Below are positions 4,216 through 45,475 of a stretch of 45,475 nt of DNA, one piece after another (positions within the stretch are counted from its first letter, which is position 1; the number at the start of each line of letters is the position of its first letter). The notes under the pieces were generated by a model, which had not been told where the DNA came from, made no database searches, and was given only the letters and a program-made list of their open reading frames with translations. A program made the translations under genes and the position numbers. The stretch is from an uncultured Candidatus Saccharibacteria bacterium (lineage in GTDB: Bacteria > Patescibacteriota > Minisyncoccia > Phycocordibacterales > UBA918), in assembly GCA_964570795.1 (NCBI GenBank), contig CAZMYZ010000007.1, forward strand, positions 1 to 45,475. The letters run 5' to 3'.

Positions 4216-4224
4216 AGTAGTACA

Positions 4225-6680: not shown

Positions 6681-6717
6681 TTTGGTGTGGTCGGTTGTGT
6701 CAAATTGCCGATACGCA

Positions 6718-10820: not shown

Positions 10821-10896
10821 TTCCCTCAATAAGATCTCGAGCGACCTCGGGGTCTTATTTGAAGGGGGGAGAGACTCCCCAACCTTCAAAGTTGTA

Positions 10897-18989: not shown

Positions 18990-20003
18990 ATGTCACATAG
19001 TTTTACTCCAAAGGTGGGCATCGACCTCGGTACAACCAATGTACTCGTGTTTGTTGATGGGAAAGGGATTCTCCTCAATGAACCCTCGGTGGTAGCGGTT
19101 TCAGGGCAGAGCGAGATTCTTGCGGTGGGGAGCGAGGCAAAGCGCATGATTGGTCGTACGCCCGATACCATACGCGCGTACCGTCCCATGAAGGATGGGG
19201 TGATTGCCGATTATCGCGTGACCGAGGCGATGCTTCGCTATTTCCTTAAAAAAGCATTGGGTAGTTTTAATATTTTTAAACCCGATGTACTCGTGTCGGT
19301 GCCGGCAGGAGTATCCTCTACGGAGAAGCGTGCAGTGATTGAGGCAACGCTGAAAGCAGGTGCACGCAATGTGTATGTGGTGAAAGAACCTATCCTTGCA
19401 GCGATTGGCGCAAAGGTTCCTATTTATGAGCCACAGGGACATATGATTGTTGATATTGGTGGTGGTACTATCGACGTAGCGGTTATTTCTCTCGGAGGCA
19501 TTGTGTCTGCAAACTCAGTGAAGTGTGCGGGGAATAAAATAGATGCAGCGATAATTGATCATGTGAAAAAGACCCATAACCTTGCAATTGGTGATAAAAC
19601 CGCCGAGGACATTAAGATTGGTGTTGGTTCTGCGCTACCGCTCGAAGAGGAAATTAGTATGAGTGTGAGTGGTCGTGATTTGCTCACGGGACTTCCGCGT
19701 ACGGTAGAAATAAAGACAAATGAAATCGTGCGTGCTATTTCACGTGAGTTGCGGGAGATGGTAAAGGCCATCAAGGATGTTTTTCAGGATACCCCACCCG
19801 AACTTGCTTCAGACATCATCGATCATGGCATTATCATGACTGGTGGTACGTCACAACTGAGAAATTTCCCCGAACTCGTAAAGCGTCGCACGGGAGTGAA
19901 AGCAACACTCGCTGACCAAGCACTCTTTTGTGTGGCAAAGGGAACTGGGGAGGCACTCCAACACCTCGATATCTACAAGCGCACTATTCTCGCTAAGCGG
20001 TAG
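18990..20003 (+). CDS. mreB: Rod-shape-determining actin homologue MreB (copy 1, monocistronic)
   Basis: VGIDLGTTNVLVFV, EPSVVA, GRTP, MIVDIGGGTIDVAVISLGG and IIMTGGTSQLRN are the actin-fold phosphate and adenosine motifs in MreB order. Confidence 0.9.
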   Translation: MSHSFTPKVGIDLGTTNVLVFVDGKGILLNEPSVVAVSGQSEILAVGSEAKRMIGRTPDTIRAYRPMKDGVIADYRVTEAMLRYFLKKALGSFNIFKPDVLVSVPAGVSSTEKRAVIEATLKAGARNVYVVKEPILAAIGAKVPIYEPQGHMIVDIGGGTIDVAVISLGGIVSANSVKCAGNKIDAAIIDHVKKTHNLAIGDKTAEDIKIGVGSALPLEEEISMSVSGRDLLTGLPRTVEIKTNEIVRAISRELREMVKAIKDVFQDTPPELASDIIDHGIIMTGGTSQLRNFPELVKRRTGVKATLADQALFCVAKGTGEALQHLDIYKRTILAKR

Positions 20004-20101: not shown

Positions 20102-22828
20102 ATGGAAATACCACAGCAGAAATTTAAAACCCCTGAGGAGGAGATTGCTTTTTTACGTGAGGAGATTGCACGTCGTGAACAAGACGTTCTTGCGCGTAAT
20201 AGAGAAATGGATATTGCCGACCGCGATAGCGTGGGGAAAGAGGTGATGCGTGAGTATGGAGAGTATGACCCGGGAATGGTGCTTGAAAAAAAACATCAAC
20301 TCTCTCCGCTTGCAGTAGCAGAGTCGCACGGGGCGGTAGAACTCGCACCACACAAAGTGGAGGAGATAGTCCATATTGCATATGAAAAAGGTATTCGAAA
20401 CGCCATGTCGGTTCTTGAGCGTATGGATGACCCATTTCTTGCTGACGAAGTCCATCGTGAACTTGCGCGTCTTATTCGCAATGAAAAGCAAGTTGCCGAC
20501 CTCAAGGAAGGTATGCCACTCTGGAAGGTGCTCAACATGTCACTCTTTGAGGTGGCGTTGCCACATCAGCCCGATGAGGCAAAACAAGACAATATAAAAG
20601 CAATTTTTGCGGCGATGGAGCAGTTTTATTCGGGTATGCAGACTATCTCTGCCCGCAAGAGTAATCTCTACTATACCCTCGAAATTGCGGTCTCTGATAA
20701 GAGTGACGATATTATTTTCTATATTGCAGTACCGACTGAGTTTGAAAATCTTTTTGAAAAGCACGCCCTCTCACTCTTTCCGCATGCAGTCCTCCGTGCA
20801 CAGCAAAATGATTACAATATTTTTGTGGAAGGCGGTGCGAGCGCAGTGTCGGTTCTTGAATTGAAGAAGCACCCCATCTATCCACTAAAACTCCATGAGA
20901 CTTTCGAGAAAGACCCCCTCAATGTTATTTTGAATGCCTTTTCAAAAATTGAACGTGATGGTGGCGGTGCGGCAATTCAGATAGTGGTGGGCGACGGTGC
21001 TGATGCGTACCATGCCGAGTATAGCGGGATTGTGAAGCGTATGGAAAAGGGTGAGAAGGCAGAAGTCTCTATTCGTAAGAGTAGTTTTGGCGGCCAGTTT
21101 TTTGAACTGGTGAAAGATATGGCGGTAGACCAAAAAAAGAAGGATGACCCCAATAATCCCGAAAACAAAGTAGATACCGAAAAGATTGAGATTTTTGGTA
21201 AAAAAATATTGTCGCCGGTAGTAGACACCAATATCCGTCTCGCTGTTTCTGCAACCACACAGCCACGTGCACAACAGATACTTACCGAACTTGAATCTTG
21301 TTTCAATCAGTTCCAGGATATGAAAGGGAATCAATGTTCCTTTAAACGTTTTTTAGGCGGGAAGCAGCAGAAGGCATTACGTGATTTTTCTTTCCGTCAA
21401 TTTGATTCTTCGTATGCGGTGCCGCTCTCACTTACCGAACTTTCGACCATTGTTCACTTTCCTGCAGAGGGTATTGAGTCCACACCACAGTTCAAGCAGT
21501 CGCGCGCAAAAGGTGTTTCAGCACCACTCAATCTTCCTAACCACGGTACGCTTCTTGGTGTAAATGAGTATCGCAACATAGCCACAAAGGTATTTCTCAC
21601 ACCAGAGGATCGTCTCCGTCACTTTTATGTGATTGGACAGACGGGTACGGGTAAAACAACGCTCATTAAAAATATGGTGGTACAGGATATTCAAGAAGGA
21701 GCAGGCGTGTGTTTTATTGATCCGCACGGTACCGATATTATGCATATTATTGCAGCGATTCCGCCTGAGCGCATTGATGATGTTATTTACTTTGATCCTT
21801 CGAATCTTGAAACATCACTTGGGCTTAATATGCTTGAGTATGATGAACAAAAGCCAGAACAGAAGACTTTTATTGTGAACGAGTTGCTCTCTATGTTCCA
21901 GAAACTCTACGGAGCAAACCCAGAATCTATGGGGCCAATGTTTGAGCAGTACTTCCGCAACTCGACACTCCTCGTGATGGAGGACCCTGCCTCGGGAAGC
22001 ACTCTTCTTGATATATCGCGCGTCATGGCAGATCCGGTATTCCGTGCACGCAAACTCGCAAAGACCACCAATCCTGTGGTGAAGCAATTCTGGGAAAAAA
22101 TTGCCACAAAGGCAGGTGGTGATCAATCTCTAGAAAACTTTGTGCCATATATCACCTCAAAGATTGACCCCCTTACCGCGAACGACTACATGCGCCCTAT
22201 TATTGGCCAACAGCACTCGTCATTCAACTTCCGTGACATTATGGACTCGAAGAAAATCCTCCTTGTGAATCTTTCGAAAGGACGTCTTGGAGAACTCAAT
22301 GCCAATCTCATCGGTATGGTGATTGTCGGCAAGATACTTATGGCAGCACTTTCACGTGTGGACGACCCGACGCAAAGTTTCCCGCCGTTCTATCTCTATA
22401 TTGATGAATTCCAAAACGTCACCACTGATTCTATCTCGGCAATTCTTTCTGAAGCTCGCAAGTATAAACTCGGCCTCACCATAGCACATCAATTTATTGC
22501 ACAAATAGATGAGAAAATTCGCGACGCGGTCTTTGGTAACGTGGGTTCGATGGCGGTCTTCCGTGTGGGTACCGAGGATGCAGTCTTTCTTGAGAAGCAA
22601 TTTGCACCAACCTTCCTTACGAATGATCTTATGAATATAGAAAACAGAAATGCATATATCCGCATTCTTTCAAACGGTACGCCAACACAGCCATTTAATA
22701 TTCACACGATGAAACCAAGTGATCCTAATCCTGAGTACGCCCGACAACTTATTGAATACTCAACACTTAAGTATGGGACACCACGTCTCGAGGTGGATGC
22801 TGCAATACGTGCACGCTATCTTTCTTAG
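20102..22828 (+). CDS. TraD/VirD4 (type IV coupling protein)-like P-loop ATPase with a ~480-aa soluble N-terminal region and no TM segments
   Basis: Walker A is VIGQTGTGKTT (GQTGTGKT at 21635-21658) and Walker B is FYLYIDEFQN (about 22391-22408). The C-terminal LTIAHQFIAQI....VFGNVGSMAVFRVG resembles the TraD/TraG C-terminal module. The N-terminus is hydrophilic and partly coiled coil. Confidence 0.7.
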   Translation: MEIPQQKFKTPEEEIAFLREEIARREQDVLARNREMDIADRDSVGKEVMREYGEYDPGMVLEKKHQLSPLAVAESHGAVELAPHKVEEIVHIAYEKGIRNAMSVLERMDDPFLADEVHRELARLIRNEKQVADLKEGMPLWKVLNMSLFEVALPHQPDEAKQDNIKAIFAAMEQFYSGMQTISARKSNLYYTLEIAVSDKSDDIIFYIAVPTEFENLFEKHALSLFPHAVLRAQQNDYNIFVEGGASAVSVLELKKHPIYPLKLHETFEKDPLNVILNAFSKIERDGGGAAIQIVVGDGADAYHAEYSGIVKRMEKGEKAEVSIRKSSFGGQFFELVKDMAVDQKKKDDPNNPENKVDTEKIEIFGKKILSPVVDTNIRLAVSATTQPRAQQILTELESCFNQFQDMKGNQCSFKRFLGGKQQKALRDFSFRQFDSSYAVPLSLTELSTIVHFPAEGIESTPQFKQSRAKGVSAPLNLPNHGTLLGVNEYRNIATKVFLTPEDRLRHFYVIGQTGTGKTTLIKNMVVQDIQEGAGVCFIDPHGTDIMHIIAAIPPERIDDVIYFDPSNLETSLGLNMLEYDEQKPEQKTFIVNELLSMFQKLYGANPESMGPMFEQYFRNSTLLVMEDPASGSTLLDISRVMADPVFRARKLAKTTNPVVKQFWEKIATKAGGDQSLENFVPYITSKIDPLTANDYMRPIIGQQHSSFNFRDIMDSKKILLVNLSKGRLGELNANLIGMVIVGKILMAALSRVDDPTQSFPPFYLYIDEFQNVTTDSISAILSEARKYKLGLTIAHQFIAQIDEKIRDAVFGNVGSMAVFRVGTEDAVFLEKQFAPTFLTNDLMNIENRNAYIRILSNGTPTQPFNIHTMKPSDPNPEYARQLIEYSTLKYGTPRLEVDAAIRARYLS

Positions 22829-22872
22829 TTATCAACGGTCGTCAGCACTGTACGCTTCGGTGCGATGGTACA

Positions 22873-24876
22873 ATGACGAATAATATGGGAGGAAAAAGTA
22901 CCTTACAAAGTACTGTATCGACTGATGGCGTCGAAACACAGGAAAAATTTGACTTGAAAAGTTGGCAGGGTCTTACTGAACTTCTTAAAGCGGGAAAAAA
23001 TGCGCTCAAGCCTGAAGTGTATGCTGAGTTTCGTAATCTTGTACTCCAGTATGCGCAGCATGGTGGTGATGCTGAATACAAAAAACGCATTGACGATGTG
23101 GTGGCGACCTTCGGGCGTGCACCTATAGTACCTGCTGAAGTTGAAGTGCCTGAAAAGGGAGTTGTACAAAAACCAGCGCATGCTTCTCGTCGTGTGGCAC
23201 CGCGCTTTGATGACATTTCTTTTATGCCCGAGTCACTTCCTCCTGAGAAGGTTGAAGTAGTAACAGAACCAGAGCAGGCTGCGCCAGAAGTGGAAAATAT
23301 TTCTGAACCTACTCCTATACCTGTTTCAGTTCCTAAAACAGTAAAGGTACCTGAGTCAATTCCAGTACCTCCCGAGCCGGTAGTTGAAGTATCTTTGCCA
23401 CCAATACCGGAGCCTATTCCTGTGCCAGTCCCAGAGCCGATAGTGGTACCCGAACCAACTCCTACATCTATTCCGGCACCAGTTCCTGTAGAAGTTCAGG
23501 AACCACTGAAACCACTAATGCAGTCTGAACCTGTCTCGCAGATAGAGCAGGTGCCATTTATGTCGCTTGAGCAGTGCAAACTGCGCATTGCGGAAATTAA
23601 GCGTGCAGTAAATACCCACTTCGGGAATCCGGTAGCACTTATGGCGGTGCCTAATAATCTTGGAAAGGTCTATATGACCGCACTCCTTAATGCACTCAAG
23701 GCCTCTACGCCAGGTGCCCCAGGTGGTGTGGGTAGTGCGATGGCAGAACTCGAGCGTGCATACAAAACTCTTATGGAAGGGGACATGATCGCTCCAATTA
23801 CTGCATCCGAGCCGGTTGTTGTACCTGTTGTAGAACCAGAATCTATTCCTGAATCAACTCTCGCGCCTGAACCGAATATAGAGTCAGTACCAGAGCCTGA
23901 ACCTATTCCCGAGCAAGCCCCTGCACCCGAACCTGTTGCTGAAACACCTTTGCCACCAGTGCCTGAGTCCGTTCCTGAACCAGAACCGATCCCCGAAATT
24001 CCTAAAGCACCAGAATCTGTAGTTGTTCCTCCACCACCATCTATTCCTGAGTCAGTACCAGAGCCTGTTTCCGAAATACTAAAGACACTCGTACCAGAAC
24101 ATGCCCCAGTACTAGAGCCAGATGAATCCGTGGTGCGTGACCCTGAAGTTTCTTCCGAAAAAGAAGCAAAACGCATGAGTATTCTCGAACGTATCGAATC
24201 AGAGCAAGGTTTGCCACCACTTGTGGATCCAGAAAATAAAGAAGTATCGCGCGCCGAAGTGATGCACTCAGCATTTGAAAAAACAGATCATACTATTTCT
24301 GCTGTCGTGAGTGCGGTTCATAAAAAGTTACCTCCAATCTCTGGCTCAATCGCAGAACTCGTAGAAGATGAAGTGAGTGGATATGACACCTGGCAAGGAG
24401 CAACAGGCCCTACATCCACGGTGCGGCCTGACACGGTCTCGACTGAGGGCGTCATTCACCGTGAAAACAAACACACTAAAAAGGGAATCATCAATGCTGC
24501 ACACCCTGCTGAACTCGAAGAACAGGGTATTGATGCTACCGAAATTGCGGTCAAGCAATCAGAACTCGTATCACCACAAATTACTACTATGCTGAACAAA
24601 TTACTCCATGAATGGAGTATCTTTGGGGGTAGTGGTCTCTTTGGTATTGGTCCTGGTGGAGCTGAGCACCCACTCTATAAACAACTGTCTGTGCTCAGTA
24701 TGGGTGAAGTGGTGGCGGGGCGATGGGATGGCGCTGATCCAAAAGTCATCAAAATCATCAAGCAATACGTCGATGCATGGCGTCATGAGCAGGGAATTAC
24801 CTACACGCTCAATGAGACCTTTGAACACTATCTCCGACGCGTCGTCCAACGTATTGTCAAAAGACAAAGTATCTAA
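22873..24876 (+). CDS. 667-aa Pro/Glu/Val-rich protein with globular islands, unknown function
   Basis: Two long PEP/PVP tracts (such as IPESVPEPEPIPE repeats) separate three non-repetitive regions. The C-terminus is LLHEWSIFGGSGLFGIGPGGAEHPLYKQL.... There is no signal peptide or TM segment. It begins 44 nt after the ATPase gene, with no terminator between them. Confidence 0.65.
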   Translation: MTNNMGGKSTLQSTVSTDGVETQEKFDLKSWQGLTELLKAGKNALKPEVYAEFRNLVLQYAQHGGDAEYKKRIDDVVATFGRAPIVPAEVEVPEKGVVQKPAHASRRVAPRFDDISFMPESLPPEKVEVVTEPEQAAPEVENISEPTPIPVSVPKTVKVPESIPVPPEPVVEVSLPPIPEPIPVPVPEPIVVPEPTPTSIPAPVPVEVQEPLKPLMQSEPVSQIEQVPFMSLEQCKLRIAEIKRAVNTHFGNPVALMAVPNNLGKVYMTALLNALKASTPGAPGGVGSAMAELERAYKTLMEGDMIAPITASEPVVVPVVEPESIPESTLAPEPNIESVPEPEPIPEQAPAPEPVAETPLPPVPESVPEPEPIPEIPKAPESVVVPPPPSIPESVPEPVSEILKTLVPEHAPVLEPDESVVRDPEVSSEKEAKRMSILERIESEQGLPPLVDPENKEVSRAEVMHSAFEKTDHTISAVVSAVHKKLPPISGSIAELVEDEVSGYDTWQGATGPTSTVRPDTVSTEGVIHRENKHTKKGIINAAHPAELEEQGIDATEIAVKQSELVSPQITTMLNKLLHEWSIFGGSGLFGIGPGGAEHPLYKQLSVLSMGEVVAGRWDGADPKVIKIIKQYVDAWRHEQGITYTLNETFEHYLRRVVQRIVKRQSI

Positions 24877-26088: not shown

Positions 26089-27185
26089 TGTCAATTCTTA
26101 TATTTCTCATTGTTCTTTTTGTACTAGTACTAGTACATGAACTCGGTCATTTTGCGGTCGCAAAATGGACGGGAATGCGCGTAGATGAATTTGGTATTGG
26201 ATTCCCACCAAAACTTTTTGGTGTCCGTCGCGGAGAGACCGAATACACATTCAATCTTTTTCCGATAGGAGGGTTTGTAAAAATATACGGTGAAGATGCA
26301 CTCCTTGAGGGTGAAGCAACACATCCCGATGCAACCTCACGTTCGTTTATGTCGAAGGGGAAGTGGGCACAAGCTGCGGTACTCGTGGCGGGTATCACGA
26401 TGAATATCCTTTTTGCATGGCTCCTTATCACTATTGCATTTGGTATGGGGGTAAAGAGTTCTGTTTCTGAGGAGGATGCCACAGATACTGCGGCACTCGC
26501 TATTACACAAGTACTTCCCGAAGGTCCTGCTGCACAAGCATCACTTACTCCTGGAGCGGTGATTCGTGAAGTGCAGGCAGGGGAAGATACACTCACGACA
26601 CTTACGCCGACAGCATTTAGTGCATTTATTGCAGAACACAAGGATGTACCGGTGACTATTGCCTATATGCTTGAAGGAGAGTTGCGTGCTGTGCAGGTTA
26701 CTCCCGCAGTGGGTATTATTGAAGGCTCCGAGCGTCCGGCGATTGGTGTTGCACTCACCCTTGTCGATACGGTATCGCGCTCATTTGGGGAATCAATTGT
26801 CGATTCTTCAGTGTTTGTGGTAACCGCAATTCGCGATATTACGGTAGGTATTTGGACACTTCTTGCTGATACGGTGCGTATGCAAGCAGACTTTTCACAA
26901 GTGGCGGGCCCTGTAGGTATTGTAGGGCTTGTCGATGAGGCGTCTTCATACGGTATCACCTCACTTCTTATGTTTACTGCATTCATCTCACTCAACCTTG
27001 CAGTCATCAATATATTGCCGTTCCCGGCCCTCGATGGAGGACGTCTTCTCTTTGTGATTATCGAAGCGGTGAAGGGGACACCAATTAAAGCGCAGTATGT
27101 CGCAGTCTTGAATACAGTAGGATTTTTCCTCCTCATTCTTCTGATGGTGTTGGTCACTTGGAATGATATAGCAAAGTTGATTTAA
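26088..27185 (+). CDS. rseP: Site-2 protease RseP (M50 family zinc metalloprotease with a PDZ region)
   Basis: HELGHF zinc motif at the N-terminus and LNLAVINILPFPALDGG near the C-terminus. The start overlaps the frr stop (TAATG). Confidence 0.88.
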   Translation: MSILIFLIVLFVLVLVHELGHFAVAKWTGMRVDEFGIGFPPKLFGVRRGETEYTFNLFPIGGFVKIYGEDALLEGEATHPDATSRSFMSKGKWAQAAVLVAGITMNILFAWLLITIAFGMGVKSSVSEEDATDTAALAITQVLPEGPAAQASLTPGAVIREVQAGEDTLTTLTPTAFSAFIAEHKDVPVTIAYMLEGELRAVQVTPAVGIIEGSERPAIGVALTLVDTVSRSFGESIVDSSVFVVTAIRDITVGIWTLLADTVRMQADFSQVAGPVGIVGLVDEASSYGITSLLMFTAFISLNLAVINILPFPALDGGRLLFVIIEAVKGTPIKAQYVAVLNTVGFFLLILLMVLVTWNDIAKLI

Positions 27186-27202
27186 GAGACTATCCACTAA
27201 CC
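27183..27202. repeat. Solo copy of the terminal motif of the 41228..41543 element
   Basis: AGAGACTATCCACTAACC matches AGAGCCTATCCACTAACC (41229-41246) at 17 of 18 positions. Here too it starts at the stop codon (the rseP TAA). Confidence 0.75.
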
Positions 27203-27769: not shown

Positions 27770-29032
27770 ATGAAACAATCCAGACTGTTCACGCGCACAC
27801 GAAAGGAAGTGCCTGGGGATGAGACCGCAAAAAATGCGCAACTCCTTATTCGTGCAGGGTACGTATATAAAGAGATGGCCGGAGTGTACTCATATCTGCC
27901 GCTCGGACTTCGGGTGCTTGAGAACATAAAGAGTATCATTCGTGAAGAAATGAATCGTGAGGGTGGGCAAGAAATAGTAATGACTGCCCTCCAGGAAAAA
28001 GAAGTTTGGGAAAAGACTGATAGATGGGATGATGCAAAAGTAGATATTTGGTTTAAGACTGCACTCAAGAATGGTACTGAGGTCGGGCTTGGTATTACTC
28101 ATGAAGAGCCTATTACTCGCATCATGACCTCGTATATTTCTTCGTATCGCGATCTTCCTCGTGCCGCATATCAATTTCAAAATAAGTTTCGTAATGAGAC
28201 GCGTGCAAAAAGCGGTATTATGCGCGGGCGCGAATTTATGATGAAAGATCTCTATGATTTTTCTCGGGACGCACGCGAACACGAAGAGTTCTATGGACGT
28301 ATGCGCGCCGCATATATTCGCGTATTTGAACGTCTGGGACTTGGTGCAATTACGTATCCAGCATTCGCATCAGGTGGTATTTTTAGTGAATTTTCTGAGG
28401 AGTTTCAGACGGTTTCTGATGCAGGGGAAGATATTATCTATGTTGATGAAGCACGTCATATTGCACTCAATAAGGAGGTATACACTGATGAGGTAATTGC
28501 GAAACTCGGTCTTGATAAAAGTACGCTCGTTGAGAAGAAGTCTATTGAGGTGGGAAATATTTTTCATCTTGGTACCAAGTTTTCAGAACCACTCGATCTC
28601 TACTACACCGATGAAGAAGGGAACAAAAAACCAGTATATATGGGATGTTACGGTATGGGTCCAACACGTATCATGGGTACTATTGTGGAAACACTTTCTG
28701 ATGCAAAGGGGATTGTGTGGCCCGAGAGTGTAGCACCGTATCAGATTCATCTTGTGGAACTCTCCGGTGGCGACACTGAACTTAAAGATGAGGCCGACGG
28801 GCTCTATAACACCTTTAAGGAGGGTGGTGTAGAAGTACTCTATGATGACCGCGATGTGCGCGCAGGAGAAAAGTTTAATGATAGCGACTTGCTCGGTATG
28901 CCGTACCGCGTCGTGGTAAGTAAAAAAACAAAAGAAGAAGGGAAGTATGAAGTTGTCGAACGAGCGACGGGTGAAGTGCTTTTCATGACCGAGGAAGAGT
29001 TGTTCCAAAAGTTCCTTAATACGACTGCATAA
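27770..29032 (+). CDS. proS: Prolyl-tRNA synthetase, short form without the bacterial INS editing domain
   Basis: Homology starts at MKQSRLFTRTRKEVPGDETAKNAQLLIRAGY (ATG at 27770). The class II motif 2 region is FRNETRAKSGIMRGREFMMKD. About 420 aa leaves no room for an INS insertion. Confidence 0.88.
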   Translation: MKQSRLFTRTRKEVPGDETAKNAQLLIRAGYVYKEMAGVYSYLPLGLRVLENIKSIIREEMNREGGQEIVMTALQEKEVWEKTDRWDDAKVDIWFKTALKNGTEVGLGITHEEPITRIMTSYISSYRDLPRAAYQFQNKFRNETRAKSGIMRGREFMMKDLYDFSRDAREHEEFYGRMRAAYIRVFERLGLGAITYPAFASGGIFSEFSEEFQTVSDAGEDIIYVDEARHIALNKEVYTDEVIAKLGLDKSTLVEKKSIEVGNIFHLGTKFSEPLDLYYTDEEGNKKPVYMGCYGMGPTRIMGTIVETLSDAKGIVWPESVAPYQIHLVELSGGDTELKDEADGLYNTFKEGGVEVLYDDRDVRAGEKFNDSDLLGMPYRVVVSKKTKEEGKYEVVERATGEVLFMTEEELFQKFLNTTA

Positions 29033-30102
29033 TGAAGGGGATTACGTCATACATCGATTCATTTCTCAACTCCTTGTCGACAGACATTGGGATTGATTTG
29101 GGTACGGCAAATACGCTTGTCTATATAAAAGGCAAGGGCATCGTACTTAATGAGCCCACTATTGTGGCGCTTAATAAAAAAACAGGGCAACTCGTTGCAA
29201 TTGGTAACGAAGCAAAAACGATGCTCGGTCGCACACCATCACATATTGAAGTAGTGCGTCCACTTGTGCATGGAGTGATTTCTGACTTTGAAGTAACTGA
29301 GGAAATGCTCGCGTACCTTATTGCAAAGGTGCGTGCCGGTACAAAGTCTCTCGTAGCACCACGTGTACTCATTGGAGTGCCGTCGGGTATTACCTCGGTT
29401 GAGATGCGCGCCGCGCGCGACGCTGCGCGCAATGCGGGTGCACGTGATGTGTTTCTTATTGAAGAGCCTATTGTTGCAGCTATTGGATCAAAACTTCCTA
29501 TTCATAAAGCACAAGGAAGTATGATTATTGATATTGGTGGAGGTACGACCGACATTGCGGTGATTTCTCTGAATGGTATCGTCACCGCTAAAAATCTTCG
29601 TGTTGCCGGCGACCAACTCAACAACGATATTGTGGCATATATCCGTGACCAATTTAAAGTACTTGTTGGAGACAAGACCGCCGAAGATACAAAAATTGCA
29701 CTTGCTTCAGTAGAAGAAGAGGGGGAATCAAAAGAAATGGTGGTGCGTGGGCGCGACGTGGTGACCGGGCTTCCGCGCGAGGTAATTATTACCGACAGTG
29801 ATATTCGTGAAGCGATTGGCAACTCCGTGAATGCAATCGTGGAAGCATCACGTGATGTTATTGAACTCACACCGCCTGAGGTACTTGCGGATGTGATGCA
29901 ACGCGGAATCAGTCTTGCGGGGGGTGGTGCACTTATTCCGGGGGTGGCACGACTTCTTGAGAGTGTACTCAAGGTACCGGTAGTGATTGTGCCTGATCCA
30001 CTCCGTGCAGTGGTACGTGGTATCGGCACGGTCCTTGAAGATTTTGAACACTATGAAGAACTTCTCAACGAAAACGAAGGAGAACTTTCGCCGCAACTCT
30101 AG
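29032..30102 (+). CDS. mreB: MreB (copy 2, first gene of the mreBCD-mrdA block)
   Basis: IGIDLGTANTLVYI, EPTIVA, GRTP, MIIDIGGGTTDIAVISLNG and ISLAGGGALIPG. The start overlaps the proS stop (TAATG). Confidence 0.9.
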   Translation: MKGITSYIDSFLNSLSTDIGIDLGTANTLVYIKGKGIVLNEPTIVALNKKTGQLVAIGNEAKTMLGRTPSHIEVVRPLVHGVISDFEVTEEMLAYLIAKVRAGTKSLVAPRVLIGVPSGITSVEMRAARDAARNAGARDVFLIEEPIVAAIGSKLPIHKAQGSMIIDIGGGTTDIAVISLNGIVTAKNLRVAGDQLNNDIVAYIRDQFKVLVGDKTAEDTKIALASVEEEGESKEMVVRGRDVVTGLPREVIITDSDIREAIGNSVNAIVEASRDVIELTPPEVLADVMQRGISLAGGGALIPGVARLLESVLKVPVVIVPDPLRAVVRGIGTVLEDFEHYEELLNENEGELSPQL

Positions 30103-36178: not shown

Positions 36179-36208
36179 GAAAGTATTGTGTGAGTTATGC
36201 ACAGATTT

Positions 36209-36275
36209 GTGTGGGGGTGTGGTAGACGGTGGGGGAGAGTGGTATATAATGTACATGTGGTGGGAGATAGTGGTA
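36209..36275 (+). promoter_or_regulatory. mraZ promoter with a phased array of GTGG boxes (candidate MraZ operator)
   Basis: GTGG cores begin at 36211, 36219, 36229, 36239, 36257/36260 and 36270, mostly about 10 nt apart. They surround a perfect TATAAT at 36245-36250, with TAGACG as a possible -35 box 16 nt upstream. Confidence 0.5.
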
Positions 36276-36320
36276 AACTATGAAAATAGTTTAACAGTAT
36301 TGAGTTCATCAATCATTCAC

Positions 36321-36755
36321 ATGCTGATTGGAGAGTACACACACAATATCGATGCCAAGAAACGGCTGTCCTTACCTTCTAAGTGGAGGAAGGAACTTGG
36401 TAAGAAACTTGTAGTGACTCGTGGACTTGATAACTGTCTCTTTGTTTATCCCTTGAAAGAGTGGGAGAAAATTACCGAGAAAATCGGTAGACTCCCGCTC
36501 GGACAGGCGGATACAAGAGGGTTCAATCGATTTTTCCTTTCGGGGGCAGTCGAAGTGGAGGTAGATACTGTAGGACGAATTCTCGTTCCTGATTTCTTAA
36601 AGGTGTTCGCTGGCTTGACCACAAAGGTCGTCCTTGCGGGTATCCATGATCGTGTAGAAATGTGGGATGAGAATCGGTGGAGTGAGTATAAGAAACGCAT
36701 TGAAGGGCAAGCAGATGCTCTCGCTGAGAAGCTTGGCGAGATTGGAGTCCTTTAA
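36321..36755 (+). CDS. mraZ: Transcriptional regulator MraZ
   Basis: MLIGEYTHNIDAKKRLSLPSKWRKEL..LVVTRGLDNCLFVYP, followed by a second SpoVT-AbrB-like half containing DTVGRILVP. Confidence 0.9.
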   Translation: MLIGEYTHNIDAKKRLSLPSKWRKELGKKLVVTRGLDNCLFVYPLKEWEKITEKIGRLPLGQADTRGFNRFFLSGAVEVEVDTVGRILVPDFLKVFAGLTTKVVLAGIHDRVEMWDENRWSEYKKRIEGQADALAEKLGEIGVL

Positions 36756-36758
36756 GAG

Positions 36759-36884
36759 TAAGAGTCCATCAAATAACTTTCAGATACGAGGCGTCGAGGA
36801 GTGAGAACATGAGTTGTACACATGTACGGTGAATGTTCGAACGACGAAAACAACGAAGTAGATGAAGTTAGTGGATGGGCTATA
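36759..36884. repeat. Short (about 126 nt) inverted copy of the element found after murF
   Basis: Three blocks match the reverse complement of 41228..41543. Block 1: 36780-36817 vs 41487-41524, 35 of 38. Block 2: 36824-36845 vs 41342-41363, 22 of 22. Block 3: 36856-36881 vs 41231-41256, 23 of 26. The ends are AGAGTCCATCA and TGGATGGGCTAT. Confidence 0.8.
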
Positions 36885-36897
36885 AGTTACATGGCGT

Positions 36898-37800
36898 ATG
36901 AAATCTCATAGAACTGTACTTACAGACGAGGCGGTAGCGGCACTCGCGATCAATGATTCTTCTGTGGTTGTTGATGCAACGCTTGGCTCATCGGGCCATG
37001 CAAAACGCATTATCGAGACACTCGGCTCACGCGGAGTGTTTGTCGGAATAGATGCCGATGTGACTGCAATTGAGAACGGTGCTGAGGTGCTCAAGGGGAG
37101 CGCATGCACCATACATCTCTCTAATGACAACTTCAGAACAATTGACTCAATTTTAGAACAACTTCACATAGAGCATGCTGATGCGATTCTGGCTGACCTT
37201 GGTTGGCGGATGGAACAGTTTAGCGGCAATGGGAAGGGCTTTTCTTTCCAGGTGGATGAACCACTTCTTATGACGTTTGGTGACCCAAAGGATTATGTCT
37301 TCACGGCACGTGACATCATAAATGAGTGGGACGAAGAAAATCTCATCAATATCCTTCGCGGATACGGTGAAGAACGCTTCGCCGGACGCATTGCGCGACA
37401 CATCGTCGAGGCACGTGCCGAAAAGCCAATCGACACCACCTTCCAACTCGTTGCCATTATTGAGGCTGCAGTACCCGCTTTCTACAAGCGCGCACGCATC
37501 CACTGTGCCACACGCACCTTTCAGGCACTTCGCATCACGGTGAACGACGAGTTTGCAGCACTTGAAGACTTTATTAAGAAGTCAGTCGCACTCCTTGTGC
37601 CGCACGGTCGACTCGCCATCATTACGTTTCATAGTATTGAAGACCGCATTGTAAAGCATCTCTTTAAAACCCTTGCACACGATCATATCGGTATCGTGCA
37701 TACCAAAAAACCAATTATTGCATCACAAGAAGAATTACAAGAAAATCCCCGCGCACGCAGCGCCAAATTACGTATCTTTGAGAAACATGAGGAAGTATAA
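36898..37800 (+). CDS. rsmH: 16S rRNA (cytosine1402-N4)-methyltransferase RsmH (MraW)
   Basis: HRTVLTDEAV....VVDATLGSSGHAKRII, DLGWRMEQF, IITFHSIEDRIVK and ENPRARSAKLR. Confidence 0.9.
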   Translation: MKSHRTVLTDEAVAALAINDSSVVVDATLGSSGHAKRIIETLGSRGVFVGIDADVTAIENGAEVLKGSACTIHLSNDNFRTIDSILEQLHIEHADAILADLGWRMEQFSGNGKGFSFQVDEPLLMTFGDPKDYVFTARDIINEWDEENLINILRGYGEERFAGRIARHIVEARAEKPIDTTFQLVAIIEAAVPAFYKRARIHCATRTFQALRITVNDEFAALEDFIKKSVALLVPHGRLAIITFHSIEDRIVKHLFKTLAHDHIGIVHTKKPIIASQEELQENPRARSAKLRIFEKHEEV

Positions 37801-38101
37801 AACTACAACAGCATATAAGGACGAATCGCGCCTTTTTTACCTTGCGCTCTCGTGTTTTGTTGTGGTACTTTCTCTCTATATGTATTTCGTGAGTTCATCA
37901 GTCCTTAATGTGGTGATGCGTAAAGAAGTAGATACCCGTATTGCTGAAGTTGGGACAGTCATTAGTGACCTTGAGGCAACGTACATCGAAATGCAACATG
38001 ATGTCAGTAGCGACATTGCGACACATCGTGGCTTTGTCATGGCAGATAAGAAGATTTTTATAGACCGTACCACCGACACTCTTTCCTTATTACAAAACTA
38101 G
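37787..38101 (+). CDS. Small bitopic membrane protein in the ftsL position
   Basis: The start MRKYKTTTAYKDESRLFYLALSCFVVVLSLYMYFV overlaps the rsmH end by 14 nt. It has one TM segment and a short coiled coil. The assignment rests on position only. Confidence 0.5.
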   Translation: MRKYKTTTAYKDESRLFYLALSCFVVVLSLYMYFVSSSVLNVVMRKEVDTRIAEVGTVISDLEATYIEMQHDVSSDIATHRGFVMADKKIFIDRTTDTLSLLQN

Positions 38102-38110
38102 CATTCCAAC

Positions 38111-39817
38111 ATGAGGCGTGACGCAGTAACTAGAATACGCATCATTACCGGGACAGTACTCGCATTCATGTGTGTACTGATTATTCGTTTGTATTTTATA
38201 CAAGTGATGCATGGTGATGAGTATCGTGCTTCTGGTGAAAGTCAGTATGTGCACACCGTGCGAGAACTCTACAATCGCGGAAGCGTGTACTTTACCACCA
38301 AAGATGGTGAAAAAGTTTCAGCAGCCACCATTAAGACCGGATACCTTCTCGCCATAGATCCAAGCAAAATTGCTGATGCAGAGCAGGTATATAGTGCTTT
38401 GAGTGCAATCATTCCTCTCGACCACGATATGTTTGTCGAGCGAGCAAACCGCAAGGATAAAACATACCAAGAAATTGAAAAGCAAGTAGAAAATGATGAT
38501 GCAGATACTATTGAGGCACTGAAGCTCCCTGGAGTGAAACTCTATCGCAACCAATGGCGCTACTATCCAGGTAAGTCACTCGCTGCACGTACGATTGGTT
38601 TTATTGGATACGATGGTGATGCGCTCGTGGGGAAGTATGGGCTCGAGCGCTACTACAACGACACACTCGTGCGTGACACTGATCACATGAGTGTTAATTT
38701 CTTTGCAGAACTTTTTAGTAATCTTGGCACCTTAGTTTTTGATGCCTCTGATGCCACTGAGGGTGATGTGGTTACTACCATAGAGCCTACCGTAGCACGT
38801 ACGCTCGATAGAGTGCTTGAGGATGAGCAAAAGCGATGGAATAGCAGTGTAACAGGCGGCATTATCATCAATCCAAAAAATGGCGAGATTATTGCACTCA
38901 ACGTCGTGCCTTCGTATGATTTGAATAATAGAAGTGGCATCGATATCGAATCCTTCCGTAATCCACTTATTGAAAACGTGTATGAGATGGGTTCTATCAT
39001 TAAGCCACTCACCGTTGCAGCGGGTCTTGATGCGGGGGTGATTACCCCACAGAGTACATACTATGACCCGGGGTGTATTGTGCTCAGTGAAAAGAAAATT
39101 TGTAACTACGATGGACGTGGACGAGGTACGGTGGCGATGCAAGAAGTTTTGAGTCAGTCGCTCAACACTGGTGTGGCGCACATCACCTCACTTCTCGGTA
39201 AAGAGCGTTTTCGTAAATATTTTTATGGACTCAAACTTGGCTCGGAGACAGGGATAGACTTGCCGAGCGAAGGACATGGCCTGGTAAAAAACCTCGAGGA
39301 GAATCGTGAACTCGAACTTGCCAATGCATCTTTCGGGCAGGGAATAGCACTGACCCCAATTGCTACCGTGCGTGCACTTTCGACGCTCGCGAACGGCGGT
39401 ATGCTCATCACTCCACACCTTGTAAAGCGTGTGGAATATAAAGACGGCACTACACATGATGTGGGATACGCCGAGGGCGAGCGTGTATTCACCGAAGAGA
39501 CGAGTGAAGACATTACGCGTATGCTCGTAACAGTAGTGGATAAGGCGCTGAAGGGTGGAAAGGCAAAAAATGAGTACTACACTATTGCTGCGAAAACAGG
39601 TACTGCACAGATTGCCGACCCTACTGGCGGATACTACGATGACCGTTATTTACACTCGTTTTTTGGCTATTTCCCGGCATATGACCCGCAATTCCTTATT
39701 TTCCTGTATACTGTGGAGCCGAAGGGGGTACAATACGCGTCTGAGACTTTGACAGACCCTTTCATTGATTTAGTACAATTCCTCATTAATTACTACGCAC
39801 TGCCCCCCGACCGATAA
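38111..39817 (+). CDS. ftsI: Division transpeptidase FtsI (class B PBP)
   Basis: N-terminal TM segment, then the three transpeptidase motifs SIIK (GSIIKP), SLN (SQSLNTG) and KTGT (AKTGTAQ). Confidence 0.85.
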   Translation: MRRDAVTRIRIITGTVLAFMCVLIIRLYFIQVMHGDEYRASGESQYVHTVRELYNRGSVYFTTKDGEKVSAATIKTGYLLAIDPSKIADAEQVYSALSAIIPLDHDMFVERANRKDKTYQEIEKQVENDDADTIEALKLPGVKLYRNQWRYYPGKSLAARTIGFIGYDGDALVGKYGLERYYNDTLVRDTDHMSVNFFAELFSNLGTLVFDASDATEGDVVTTIEPTVARTLDRVLEDEQKRWNSSVTGGIIINPKNGEIIALNVVPSYDLNNRSGIDIESFRNPLIENVYEMGSIIKPLTVAAGLDAGVITPQSTYYDPGCIVLSEKKICNYDGRGRGTVAMQEVLSQSLNTGVAHITSLLGKERFRKYFYGLKLGSETGIDLPSEGHGLVKNLEENRELELANASFGQGIALTPIATVRALSTLANGGMLITPHLVKRVEYKDGTTHDVGYAEGERVFTEETSEDITRMLVTVVDKALKGGKAKNEYYTIAAKTGTAQIADPTGGYYDDRYLHSFFGYFPAYDPQFLIFLYTVEPKGVQYASETLTDPFIDLVQFLINYYALPPDR

Positions 39818-39937
39818 CCGTATGAATTTTATTAACAAGCTTTTGACTTTAGAGTGGTGCGTCGCAATGAGGCATTTTGAGAGCACATTGCGACGGCCTA
39901 GATTTTCTAAGTCGCTACGCTCATAAGAAAATCTGGC

Positions 39938-41230
39938 ATGAAAGAAATTTTTAAAAAAATCGTTGTCGCGATCCTTACCTTTGAAGCAAAGATGCTTTTG
40001 CGTCGCACCCATCCACAGATTATTGCGGTGACGGGAAGTGTGGGGAAGACTTCCATCAAGGATGTAATCTATGAAGTCTTTAAGGGAAAGATTCATGTAC
40101 GCAAAAGTGAAAAGAGTTTCAATTCTGAAATTGGCGTGCCACTCTCAGTACTCGGTCTCCCGAATGCATGGAATAATCCATTTATGTGGCTCAAGAATAT
40201 TATTGATGGTGCACTCATTGCAATACATCCCGGAGAGTATCCAAAGTTACTTATCCTCGAGATGGGTGTCGACAGACCAGGCGATATGGATAAACTCACT
40301 TCATGGATCCGCCCCGATGTTGTGGTACTTACGCGCTTGCCTGATGTACCGGTGCATGTGGAGTTTTTTGTGTCACCCGAGGCAGTTATTCAGGAAAAAA
40401 AGAAACTCGTCGATGCGCTAAAGCCGGATGGAGTGCTTGTCTTTAATCAGGATGATGAAAAGGTGGTGGAGATTGTGCAGGGCGTGTTTCAGCGCTCCAT
40501 AGGATATAGTCGCTACTCACTTTCACCATTTACTGCTTCTGGTGACCGTGTGATATATGAAAACGGTCAGGCAGTTGGTTTTGAATTTTTGCTCACTCAC
40601 TTGGATACTGCGGTACTCATGCGGGTGAACGGCTCACTTGGGGTGCAACATGCGTACAATTATGCAGCAGCTGCTGCCGTAGCATCAGTATTTAGTATTA
40701 GTGTTGAGGACGCTGCTGCTGCACTGAGTACCCATACTCCACCCCCAGGACGTATGCGTCTTATTCCGGGAATCAAGGATACGCTTATTATTGATGATAC
40801 ATACAATTCTTCACCAACCGCGAGTGAACGTTCCCTCGCAACTCTCGGTGAACTGAAAGGGGTGAAGCGTCGTATTGCGGTTTTAGGCGACATGATGGAG
40901 TTAGGGCAGTTTTCTATTAAAGAACATGAACGTATTGGACGTCTTGTACCACACAATGCACACATTCTTGTCACTATCGGTGTGCGCTCTCGTGGTTTTT
41001 CAAAGGGAGCTGTGGAAGCAGGTATGGACCCTAAAAATATTTTTGAATTTGATGATGCACTCCGTGCAGGAAAGGAATTGCAAAACTTTATCAAAGCAGG
41101 GGATGCAATTCTCGTGAAAGGCTCACAGTCTATTCGCGCTGAGCGCTTTGTGGAGGAACTCATGGCAGAGCCAGAAAAAGCAGAAGAGATGCTTGTACGG
41201 CAGGACACAATGTGGAAGAAAATTGTTTAG
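39938..41230 (+). CDS. murF: MurF-like Mur ligase (UDP-MurNAc-tripeptide--D-Ala-D-Ala ligase family) with a very short N-terminus
   Basis: IAVTGSVGKTSIKD P-loop about 30 aa from the start, the IIDDTYNSSP motif, and a C-terminal domain with VLGDMMELG. An in-frame TAA at 39908-39910 rules out a longer N-terminus. Confidence 0.75.
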   Translation: MKEIFKKIVVAILTFEAKMLLRRTHPQIIAVTGSVGKTSIKDVIYEVFKGKIHVRKSEKSFNSEIGVPLSVLGLPNAWNNPFMWLKNIIDGALIAIHPGEYPKLLILEMGVDRPGDMDKLTSWIRPDVVVLTRLPDVPVHVEFFVSPEAVIQEKKKLVDALKPDGVLVFNQDDEKVVEIVQGVFQRSIGYSRYSLSPFTASGDRVIYENGQAVGFEFLLTHLDTAVLMRVNGSLGVQHAYNYAAAAAVASVFSISVEDAAAALSTHTPPPGRMRLIPGIKDTLIIDDTYNSSPTASERSLATLGELKGVKRRIAVLGDMMELGQFSIKEHERIGRLVPHNAHILVTIGVRSRGFSKGAVEAGMDPKNIFEFDDALRAGKELQNFIKAGDAILVKGSQSIRAERFVEELMAEPEKAEEMLVRQDTMWKKIV

Positions 41231-41543
41231 AGCCTATCCACTAACCCCATCTACTTTGTGGCCGGAACGTACAGAGCGTAGCGACAATACGTTCCGAGTC
41301 TGTCGTATTTTCTTCCCCACGGAAGAAAATACGACGAATGAGTCGTTCGAACATTCACCGTACGTTGAGTTCCTGACAGGAACTGTCCACTCATTGGGTC
41401 TTCTTGCGACAGTCTCCCAGACTGTCTCACCTTTCATTCACAAAAGTCCTCAATGAGTCTTGCGAATGTGCTTTATGCACATTCTCACGACTTATGTCCT
41501 CACTCCTCGACGCCTCGTATCTGAGGTCATTGGATAGGCTCTA
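41228..41543. repeat. 316-nt hairpin-packed element with 13-nt perfect terminal inverted repeats (a MITE-like element or a structured RNA)
   Basis: TAGAGCCTATCCA at 41228-41240 is the exact reverse complement of TGGATAGGCTCTA at 41531-41543. The interior contains at least five perfect stem-loops, including a 15-bp one at 41302-41335. There is no credible ORF. Confidence 0.8.
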
Positions 41544-41585
41544 ATGGTCGTTTTGCAATTGCTGACATCGTAAGTCGGCAATTCT

Positions 41586-41619
41586 AAAAATGGTTGACGT
41601 CCGACGTCGACCATTTTTT
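41586..41619. terminator. Bidirectional terminator between the dcw block (+) and the CAP-domain gene (-)
   Basis: AAAAATGGTTGACGT CCG ACGTCGACCATTTTT stem with one mismatch. Confidence 0.7.
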
Positions 41620-42430
41620 AATACGGTTTTTCGCCCTCTATGTTTCCGGGGGGATTGTATCTACATACCCAGAGGTCTGTTTGTGTATTGTCGTTCCCTC
41701 TGTCAAAACACGTATGCACACTGCAGCCCACCTCAGTAGTGTCAGCCCAGACTATCTGTGTGTAGTGGCCACAGTCTTCGCCGCGCCGGCACGTATTTTT
41801 GGTGTAGTTATAATAGCGAATCTCATCTGCCCACCACGTGACTGCTTCTTCAGGGGTGCTAATAAGATCGCTATTATTGCTATCTGAAATCCATTGCCAA
41901 TACAGATTTTCACCATAGGAAGTATCGGGGTCATGATAGAAGTCGCACTCGTCTTCGGTGAGTATTTCACCCCACTCTCGAGAACTTTTTGCAAGGGTAT
42001 TTGACCAGGTGAGTGGAGTGAGTTCATGCTCTTCACGTACTTCATTGTGCGCTCTAAGCATATCGAGCGCATCAAAGCCCATAGCGCGCGGCTGTGCTAC
42101 TACCGGTGCAGGTACCGCACGCGCTACCGTAGCTACGGCAGGCGGTGGTGTTGGTTTTACTGTTTTTTCGGGGGGTGCTTTGGAGATGGTTTCTATTTTT
42201 TCTTCAGTACTCGTAGCAATGTGTGCTACTTCCACTGGTGTATGTATGGGTACTGGTGGTGTAGTGTATGCCACTTTTGTTTCAGGAGTGCTTGTAGCCA
42301 CAGGAGCATACACAATAGGTTTAATAGTCATATTTTTGTGTGCAATAAGGAGTAGTGCACATACAAGTAAAAATACCGCGAGAAGTACAATTCCCGTCAA
42401 CGTCTCTACCGTGTGGCGTGAGTAGTACAT
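41618..42430 (-). CDS. Membrane-anchored CAP/SCP/PR-1 superfamily protein
   Basis: N-terminal anchor and a Pro/Thr linker, then LRAHNEVREEHELTPLTWSNTLA....GENLYW....GHYTQIVWADTTEVGCSV......WVCRYNPPGN, which are the CAP signature blocks. Confidence 0.8.
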   Translation of the reverse strand: MYYSRHTVETLTGIVLLAVFLLVCALLLIAHKNMTIKPIVYAPVATSTPETKVAYTTPPVPIHTPVEVAHIATSTEEKIETISKAPPEKTVKPTPPPAVATVARAVPAPVVAQPRAMGFDALDMLRAHNEVREEHELTPLTWSNTLAKSSREWGEILTEDECDFYHDPDTSYGENLYWQWISDSNNSDLISTPEEAVTWWADEIRYYNYTKNTCRRGEDCGHYTQIVWADTTEVGCSVHTCFDRGNDNTQTDLWVCRYNPPGNIEGEKPY

Positions 42431-45427: not shown

Positions 45428-45475
45428 TCATGCCACTAAAAATAGCGCCCAATGGCGCTATTTTTAGTGGCATGA
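45428..45475. repeat. Perfect 22-bp inverted repeat ending exactly at the window edge
   Basis: TCATGCCACTAAAAATAGCGCC CAAT GGCGCTATTTTTAGTGGCATGA. Confidence 0.85.

Follow-up and report, generated by a model that had tools for sequence, protein, structure and literature searches.

Copies of one repeat family in the dcw operon

The window analysed here is a 45,475-nt stretch (positions 1 to 45,475 of contig CAZMYZ010000007.1, assembly GCA_964570795.1) from an uncultured Candidatus Saccharibacteria bacterium. It carries the division and cell wall (dcw) genes mraZ, rsmH, ftsL, ftsI and murF on the plus strand, and two related segments in opposite orientation lie between mraZ and rsmH and directly after murF. 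We find that these segments belong to a dispersed family of ~130-nt rod-like intergenic hairpin repeats that was previously uncatalogued, and that their inverted pairing around rsmH-ftsL-ftsI-murF is incidental rather than purpose-built. The features of the locus are collected in Table 1.

A preliminary description of this DNA named the genes mraZ, rsmH, ftsL, ftsI and murF, and Pfam agrees for MraZ, RsmH, a penicillin-binding protein transpeptidase and a Mur ligase; the scan gave no match for the ftsL-like open reading frame (ORF) between rsmH and the transpeptidase gene. The mraZ coordinates are those of the ORF from its first possible start, and the 144-aa protein called in relatives would begin near 36321. 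In relatives the ftsL-like gene encodes 104 aa and overlaps the end of rsmH, which would place the equivalent start here near 37787. The 142-nt mraZ-rsmH spacer runs from the TAA stop of mraZ (36753-36755) to the rsmH start at 36898. At the other site, the TAG stop of the Mur ligase gene (41228-41230) falls within the first bases of the repeat. No plus-strand terminator-like site was predicted between 36600 and 41630, so it is reasonable to place both copies on one plus-strand dcw transcript, which is probable and is what the preliminary description had assumed. The CAP-domain protein gene converges on the dcw operon, and the two share the terminator-like region at 41552-41618.

The spacer between murF and the CAP gene holds, at 41552-41582, another small hairpin motif, of the form (stem)GACATCGTAAGTC(stem). 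It occurs once or twice per murF-CAP spacer of the clade, in both orientations (L036, 14243-14268 and 14916-14940; L037, 14300-14328 and 14350-14378; L039, 5216-5240), and is absent from the other loci examined.

Table 1. Features of the dcw locus and of the repeat copies in the window. L036 to L039 are syntenic contigs of relatives; for the short and the long copy the strand given is the sense strand, as defined in the text.
Feature	Coordinates	Strand	Evidence or description
solo arm of the same repeat, TTAAGAGACTATCCACTAACC	27182..27202	+	overlaps TAA stop of M50 peptidase gene
mraZ	36186..36755	+	Pfam PF02381, 2.5e-35; syntenic in L036, L037, L039
short (canonical) copy of repeat	36757..36887	+	covariance model R1, 115.6 bits, E 5e-27
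rsmH (mraW)	36898..37800	+	Pfam PF01795, 1e-91; homologues found
ftsL-like small ORF	37673..38101	+	ORF list; gene calls in L036-L039
class B penicillin-binding protein (ftsI-like)	38111..39817	+	Pfam PF00905, PF03717 (transpeptidase)
Mur ligase (murF-like, 430 aa)	39938..41230	+	Pfam PF08245, PF02875
long copy of repeat	41227..41544	-	inverted repeat; RNA fold; short-form copy at same site in L039
insert B of long copy	41260..41341	-	two extra hairpins in 3' strand of rod
block 2 in long copy	41342..41363	-	inner-stem and apical segment, 22/22 with short copy
insert A of long copy	41364..41486	-	~123 nt, several hairpins, in place of apical loop
block 1 in long copy	41487..41524	-	most conserved core strand (…CTCACTCCTCGACGCCTCGTATCTGA on + strand)
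local hairpin TTGCTGACATCGTAAGTCGGCAA, then palindrome 41586-41618 (AAAAATGGTTGACGTC/GACGTCGACCATTTTT)	41552..41618		terminator-like region
convergent CAP-domain protein gene	41618..42430	-	Pfam PF00188

The resemblance of the two segments had been described as three inverted blocks, and a repeat search of the window and BLAST recover all three, collinear on the reverse complement. Block 1 pairs 36780-36817 with 41487-41524 (35/38 identical, 92%), block 2 pairs 36824-36845 with 41342-41363 (22/22), and block 3 pairs 36853-36885 with 41227-41259 (28/33, 85%), or 36856-36881 with 41231-41256 in its narrower form (23/26). With BLAST E values of 5e-9 for block 1 and 5e-6 for block 2 in a database of ~0.5 Mb, the inverted match is confirmed to be far beyond chance. 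The segments are therefore related to each other, and are not the independently evolving leader and trailer sequences that had been named as the alternative. The covariance model R1, built from other members of the family as described below, places the short copy at 36757-36887, almost filling the mraZ-rsmH spacer.

Both copies are predicted to fold into stable hairpins. That of the short copy spans ~36763-36881, with an RNA folding energy of -39.7 kcal/mol (z -3.5). The long copy, at 318 nt, is closed by a 28-nt stem (41227-41254 with 41517-41544) and folds at -143.4 kcal/mol as the minus strand (z -9.7) and -125.5 kcal/mol as the plus strand (z -9.0). It keeps the core of the family and adds ~123 nt at the apical loop and ~82 nt in one strand. 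Perfect small hairpins form within both inserts, among them a perfect 15-bp stem in insert B (41302-41316 with 41321-41335). As had been noted, the short copy lacks these inserts, and BLAST found no second copy of either in any sequence examined. The two core strands of the R1 model are present in the long copy with 0 and 2 mismatches, together with the closing stem. Because of the two inserts, R1 aligns only to the 3' part of the long copy (22 bits, E 0.015). Both window segments are thus members of the R1 family. At the junction of the mraZ stop and the short copy, 36753-36764 is a tandem duplication, TAAGAG TAAGAG, of a unit that is single in the related contig L037.

A dispersed family of intergenic hairpin repeats

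A 20-mer from block 1 matched three "Candidatus Saccharibacteria" and two "Deltaproteobacteria" metagenome-assembled genomes (MAGs) among GTDB representative genomes. A sixth match (L002), on a contig of 70% G+C, has a single core strand only and looks like chance. The true matches are compact, ~125-nt elements whose surroundings are unrelated: they follow rpoD or a cyclophilin gene, or lie upstream of efp. A gapped pattern found 29 loci on metagenome contigs. Nine of these lie in high-GC coding DNA and match by chance; the other 20 are true members, four of which duplicate another locus. Together the 20-mer and the pattern yielded ~25 true members, in contexts that are not related.

The covariance model R1, built from 21 members, returned 32 full copies at 31-128 bits, plus part of the long copy, in the ~226 kb examined. 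Altogether 33 copies lie on ~25 metagenomic or MAG contigs, which come from Saccharibacteria-type members of the Candidate Phyla Radiation (CPR) and from "Deltaproteobacteria" MAGs (at least two). Members are 125-135 nt long and intergenic, and occur in both orientations relative to the flanking genes. CPR genomes are ~1 Mb and very compact, yet some contigs carry two or three copies in consecutive intergenic gaps. This is the case for L015, where the order is dprA-[copy]-ORF-[copy]-topA-[copy]-relA/spoT, for L026, and for L005 (JACRCL010000012.1, from a MAG labelled Deltaproteobacteria), which has same-strand copies at 1722-1846, 4218-4343 and 6708-6840, ~2.5 kb apart and flanking cheW and cheA. 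Since it encodes CheA and CheW, L005 does not come from a CPR genome, and the family therefore crosses phyla.

The family appears to be undescribed. Neither window copy matched an Rfam 15 model (the mraW motif, 6S, SRP and ribozymes included) at E <= 10, and a scan of the window at gathering level gave only a tRNA; copies in eight other loci had no Rfam 15 match at E <= 0.1. The family pattern has no match in IMG/VR viral contigs, and the short copy has none in phage, plasmid or E. coli collections. In the literature on repeats and structured RNAs of Saccharibacteria, CPR and Patescibacteria, searched also with the core strings, we found nothing relevant to the family.

Covariation and strand asymmetry

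The rod consists of a closing stem of ~20-25 bp, a conserved asymmetric core, a covarying inner stem and a GUA/UAC apical stem. On the structured strand the core reads …AGAUACGAGGCGUCGAGG…GAGNCGUA-loop-UACGNUGAG…CGAAGACAACAAAGUAGAU…, and the conserved core strands of R1 are …UACGAGGCGUCGAGG… and …GACAACAAAGUAGAU…. We designate as sense the better-folding strand, the one that reads …AGAUACGAGGCGUCGAGG…; it is the plus strand for the short copy and the minus strand for the long copy. It folds better than its complement in 22/22 of the unique members first examined. GUAG stands at the junction of core and outer stem in 22/32 copies. The closing stem differs in sequence by lineage yet stays complementary. 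The version TTAGAGCCTATCCACTAAC… is found in the window and in L010, with near variants in L008 and L039, while GAGCTTGGTGAATATTG… is found in ~10 other contigs and further versions in other lineages.

Conservation of pairing is also seen in the alignment of the members. Standard pairs fill 95.2% of pair cells, compared with 79% in column shuffles and 23-42% when partners are slid, and 16/24 core pairs show compensatory changes on both sides, although these figures are somewhat inflated because the alignment was fitted to the model. The variation of the closing stem, which the model does not use, shows the same conservation of pairing by eye.

The wobble pairs are unevenly divided between the strands. 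In the 24 core pairs, 62 cells (15 positions) are G·U and 6 (4 positions) are A·C, and in the lineage-specific outer stems there are 50 G·U pairs on the sense strand compared with 23 on the antisense strand. This bias argues that a single-stranded form of sense polarity, RNA or DNA, is or was under selection.

Several known kinds of structure were considered and rejected. A small peptide encoded by the core was set aside by inspection, as there is an in-frame TGA and short ORFs are not conserved between members. The hairpin ribozyme was considered by eye, since GAAGACAAC here resembles its GAAGUCAAC; it was rejected, as were the sarcin-ricin loop, the kink-turn, group II intron domain V, attC, retron msr/msd and 6S RNA. 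In these look-alikes either the registers or defining motifs do not fit, or the covariation is that of plain helices where the motif needs non-canonical pairs. The Rfam models of the hairpin ribozyme, 6S RNA and the other look-alike families gave no match.

Syntenic relatives carry the copies singly or not at all

Five syntenic contigs of relatives were reached through RsmH homologues, and mraZ-rsmH-ftsL-ftsI-murF is collinear in all five. One of them, L036, is part of a complete 1.05-Mb genome (CP064968.1) that NCBI labels Candidatus Kaiserbacteria. Whereas the window has a full copy in its 142-nt mraZ-rsmH spacer and the 318-nt long copy at the murF site, L039 (RsmH 96% identical) has a 61-nt spacer with a truncated remnant and, at the murF site, a short-form copy at 5017-5147. 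The L039 remnant has a local score of 50, compared with a shuffle maximum of 34, and the murF-site copy is 131 nt long, scores 102.6 bits and has the same orientation as the long copy of the window. L037 (RsmH 95%) has the reverse distribution, with a full copy (9860-9990) in a 136-nt spacer and none at the murF site. The relatives with short spacers, a comparison proposed in the preliminary description, carry no copy there: the spacer is 22 nt in L036 (RsmH 94%) and L040 (90%) and 10 nt in L038 (82%). The murF site also lacks a copy in L036 and in L038, where its 33-nt spacer holds the terminator only; the L040 contig ends before this site. Apparent murF-site remnants in L037 and L036 are not significant, their local scores being 14 and 22 compared with a shuffle mean of 17 and maximum of 31.

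Judged from the relatives, the long copy is a normal one that has been expanded, and either window copy can be found in a relative without the other. Because copies are found singly or are absent in the relatives, the pair in the window is incidental. A third site shows a further state: beside the M50 peptidase gene the window keeps one arm (27182-27202), L037 keeps the opposite arm (349-373), and L036 has neither. The window arm is a third, decayed copy, and the distribution of arms points to decay by deletion.

These comparisons bear on two functions that had been proposed for the pair. The first is that the copies, transcribed on one dcw mRNA, pair with each other over 4.4 kb and either loop the mRNA or make an RNase III substrate, thereby regulating rsmH-ftsL-ftsI-murF. 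Such pairing is thermodynamically possible. The plus-strand RNAs are complementary over the three blocks, no plus-strand terminator-like site is predicted between them, and RNAcofold of the two segments gives -252 kcal/mol with 109 intermolecular pairs, compared with -165 kcal/mol when they are folded separately. However, each copy is a stable hairpin alone (z -3.5 and -9), the short one has folded by the time its partner is transcribed 4.4 kb later, and translation occupies the interval between them. The two-copy arrangement is, moreover, unique to the window among six syntenic genomes, with L037 and L039 keeping one intact copy each and L036 and L038 having none at either site, and elsewhere, at dozens of unrelated sites, single copies of the family are the norm. 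The pairing is thermodynamically possible but not conserved, a functional unit is not supported, and we consider regulation by it very improbable.

In the second proposal, homologous recombination between the inverted copies would flip the four-gene block. The pair does contain identical inverted tracts 4.4 kb apart, one inside block 1 (26 nt) and one that is the whole of block 2 (22 nt), and the derived bases that the window copies share, described below, suggest sequence exchange by gene conversion. Yet all five syntenic relatives are collinear, with no inverted isomer among them. Efficient RecA recombination usually needs a minimum length of identity, and the tracts lie at or below it. Inversion would also be expected to detach rsmH-ftsL-ftsI-murF from the promoter on the mraZ side and to set these essential genes against their transcription context. 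We consider this proposal the least probable of those weighed here. For the window this is a deflationary outcome: what flanks its dcw genes is no regulatory or recombination device but two incidental copies of a dispersed repeat.

Orthologous copies are more alike than their surroundings

Four-fold degenerate sites place L039 and L037 as sister lineages with the window outside them. Between the window and L039, identity at these sites is 48% in murF and 51% in ftsI, whereas the murF-site copies of the two are 89.5% identical (102/114 columns), and their closing stems differ only by two compensatory pair changes. At the mraZ site, the window and L037 copies are 91-92% identical (105/114 columns). 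The orthologous copies are the most similar pairs, which favours common descent at each site over repeated insertion. Given identity of ~90% compared with ~48% at neighbouring synonymous sites, either constraint or gene conversion acts on the copies.

The two copies within the window are themselves 88% identical, compared with 80-85% for other cross-site pairs, and in block 2 they share derived bases (22/22 together) that distinguish them from both of their orthologues. The shared bases make gene conversion between the copies plausible, and it is likewise plausible that such conversion could mimic purifying selection. As a separate observation, four-fold identity between the window and L039 or L037 is very uneven along the operon (mraZ 91%, rsmH ~70%, ftsI and murF ~48-51%), which suggests recombination mosaics among these strains.

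Most copies abut stop codons, nearly always in one polarity

In 20/33 copies, an ORF of at least 80 aa ends between -3 and +12 nt from the end of the element. In every one of these 20 stop-abutting cases, the mRNA carries the strand opposite to the better-folding one. The other polarity is found at a stop codon only in the mraZ-site copy of the window and L037 and on one side of a copy wedged between convergent genes; the binomial probability of the bias is ~4e-4, computed for an 18-vs-2 split. The abutting stops, on a recount, are 12 TAG, 7 TAA and 1 TGA, with a TAG background of 37%. The enrichment of TAG is modest (p = 0.01 at 13/20, and slightly weaker at the recounted 12/20). In the window, each copy directly follows a stop codon, TAA of mraZ and TAG of murF. 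Such placement could also come from selection in compact genomes.

Manual inspection of the flanks of ~25 copies, used here because automated detection of stem ends is unreliable, found no consistent target-site duplication; TA…TA or short repeats occur at a few copies only. This bears on the idea that the family is a classical miniature inverted-repeat transposable element (MITE), that is, an internally deleted DDE insertion sequence moved via its terminal inverted repeats. Like MITEs, the copies have terminal inverted repeats, are small, intergenic and multi-copy, and are polymorphic for presence and absence, and some subfamily ends, such as TTAGAG…CTCTAA, are flanked by TA at some copies. 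The lack of a consistent duplication of fixed length does not fit, however. In addition, the interior is the conserved part and the ends vary by lineage, opposite to the pattern of a MITE, the one-strand wobble bias points to a single-stranded form, and no related or parent insertion sequence is present in the loci examined. A MITE origin thus seems improbable.

Placement and constraint could instead reflect a function for the host. In this alternative the family would be a host-functional structured nucleic acid, a multi-copy non-coding RNA or cis-acting element kept by selection at each site; it may act as a sense RNA made from its own or convergent promoters, or as a hairpin in the 3' untranslated region that sets mRNA 3' ends or stability after the stop codon. 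Much of the evidence above would fit. Covariation is strong, and on one strand G·U outnumbers A·C ~10:1. Conservation of the core extends across phyla, Saccharibacteria and "Deltaproteobacteria" MAGs both having exact 20-nt matches. Orthologues are ~90% identical where neighbouring four-fold sites are 48-51% identical, the murF-site arms of the window and L039 differ only by the two compensatory pair changes, and placement at stop codons is precise and oriented. Nevertheless, 15/32 copies have their sense strand antisense to a tandem gene pair, and in some of these the next gene begins after only 15-19 nt, which leaves a promoter no room. Promoter-like sites are no commoner than in shuffles. 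No U-tract follows the hairpin, and separate terminators do. Close relatives have lost copies, or keep them truncated or as solo arms, with no visible consequence, and the gene conversion suggested by the derived bases that the window paralogues share would mimic constraint. On balance we judge a host function to be rather unlikely.

A probable mobile hairpin repeat

We think it probable that the family is a mobile, or once mobile, dispersed hairpin repeat. It would spread, or would once have spread, as a non-autonomous element, using a single-stranded hairpin intermediate of sense polarity and making no target-site duplication, and copies would land or survive directly after TAG or TAA stop codons. 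Once inserted, they would be transcribed within host mRNAs and fold locally into stable hairpins. The murF copy is the same element as the canonical one, enlarged by hairpins that were inserted at its apical loop and in one of its strands. Copies would decay by internal deletion to give truncated copies and solo arms, and may be partly homogenised by gene conversion or held by selection. Mobilisation through a single-stranded step is the more tentative part of this account; it is possible, but we hold it with much less confidence than mobility itself.

Several observations weigh against a mobile repeat. No transposase, recombinase or reverse transcriptase domain was found in the window ORFs scanned, and no split element enclosing an ORF was found in the loci examined. 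Because no autonomous partner was found, the case for mobility is one of distribution and of presence and absence only. Presence and absence can be explained by old insertions followed by losses, and no case of recent insertion was found. In most positions the host mRNA carries the complement of the structured strand, which sits awkwardly with a host function at the RNA level and equally with simple models of transposition through single-stranded DNA. The terminal sequences are not conserved across lineages, unlike those of classical MITEs. Finally, a purely selfish, decaying element does not predict orthologues that are ~90% identical beside four-fold sites at 48-51%, so selection in situ or gene conversion is needed as well.

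By kind, the family falls among the small intergenic palindromic repeats of bacteria, and ERIC/IRU is closest to it in size, context and the occurrence of long and short forms (PMC2759123). ERIC is likewise an imperfect palindrome of ~127 nt that forms a long, stable hairpin, is transcribed and intergenic and occurs in either orientation, and it is non-autonomous, its means of movement being unknown. Longer ERIC forms reportedly arise via insertion at internal sites, a finding attributed to Wilson & Sharp in 2006. The likeness does not extend to sequence, as blastn (E <= 0.01) finds nothing like the short copy in any of 5,426 complete E. coli genomes. ERIC also has TA termini and TA target duplications (PMC2759123), which are not general in the R1 family, and effects on upstream mRNAs have been proposed for ERIC/IRU (RU-1) and the enterobacterial repeats RU-2/YPAL and RU-3 (PMC2759123). 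The R1 family further differs in its lineage-variable closing stem and conserved non-palindromic core, and in its hosts, which are CPR and a deltaproteobacterial lineage.

Other features of the family are closer to those of REP/BIME repeats and REPINs, which are mobilised by RAYT (Y1 HUH) transposases. These too are dispersed extragenic hairpins, often just downstream of genes, without target duplication and with stem sequences specific to a lineage. They are recognised as single-stranded hairpins, which in the R1 family would explain the wobble pairs on one strand, and they carry a conserved GTAG next to a stem, to which the GUAG of 22/32 R1 copies may correspond. On the other hand, REPs are 20-40 nt long and a REPIN is two inverted REPs, whereas an R1 member is a single 130-nt rod with an asymmetric core and has its GUAG on the 3' side of the core and not at the 5' foot. 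No RAYT (Y1) domain was found in the ORFs of the window, 45 kb of this genome, and no RAYT gene was seen in the fragments of others.

Correia/NEMIS elements of Neisseria resemble the R1 family as hairpin-forming repeats, 100-155 nt long, that lie within transcripts and often near gene ends; they exist in long and short forms, and their folded RNA is an RNase III substrate. Their 26-nt terminal repeats are conserved, they show a TA duplication and they are confined to one genus, none of which holds for R1. PATEs, derived from IS200/IS605, likewise make no target duplication; they insert in a fixed orientation beside a short fixed sequence and depend on hairpins in the single strand, features that the R1 family may share. 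They differ in having separate left and right subterminal hairpins and a 4-5-nt target on the active strand, while an R1 element is one hairpin. The one flank that recurs beside R1 copies is a stop codon, TAG or TAA, and it lies on the complement of the better-folding strand.

There is some chance, which we rate as low, that the family represents a new class of structured single-stranded element (RNA or DNA), covarying, with a core shared across phyla, retained by selection site by site while synonymous positions nearby saturate, and placed at stop codons to the nucleotide and in a fixed polarity. If so, it would imply either a new stop-codon-targeting mode of mobilisation or a new multi-copy family of regulatory RNAs in ultra-small bacteria. 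More generally, the family could serve as a strain-typing marker for uncultured Saccharibacteria and help to show how mobile DNA persists in genomes of reduced size, and it may be a lead to a new hairpin-recognising enzyme or RNA function.

Other features of the window

Elsewhere in the window, the minus-strand ORF at 17325-18827 encodes an unusual 500-aa protein in which an N-terminal HTH_3 domain is fused to an enzyme of the EPSP-synthase family (MurA-like). Two MreB paralogues, described as within 10 kb of each other, lie at 18990-20003 and 29032-30102, and the second heads an mreB-mreC-PBP2 (penicillin-binding protein 2) cluster. The gene-strand switch from minus to plus at ~18.9 kb was considered as a replication origin and rejected, since GC skew is positive across the whole window. 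The interval 20102-24876 encodes a 908-aa VirD4/TraG-like coupling ATPase followed by a 667-aa ORF without a Pfam match. The minus-strand interval 7610-11673 holds a gene for a 970-aa DUF11/CARDB repeat protein with internal 54-nt DNA repeats at 9050, 9626 and 9923, and the ORF beside it, which contains a 102-nt direct repeat (11077 and 11419, 86% identical). At the very end of the window, 45428-45475 forms a perfect 22-nt inverted repeat with a 4-nt loop.

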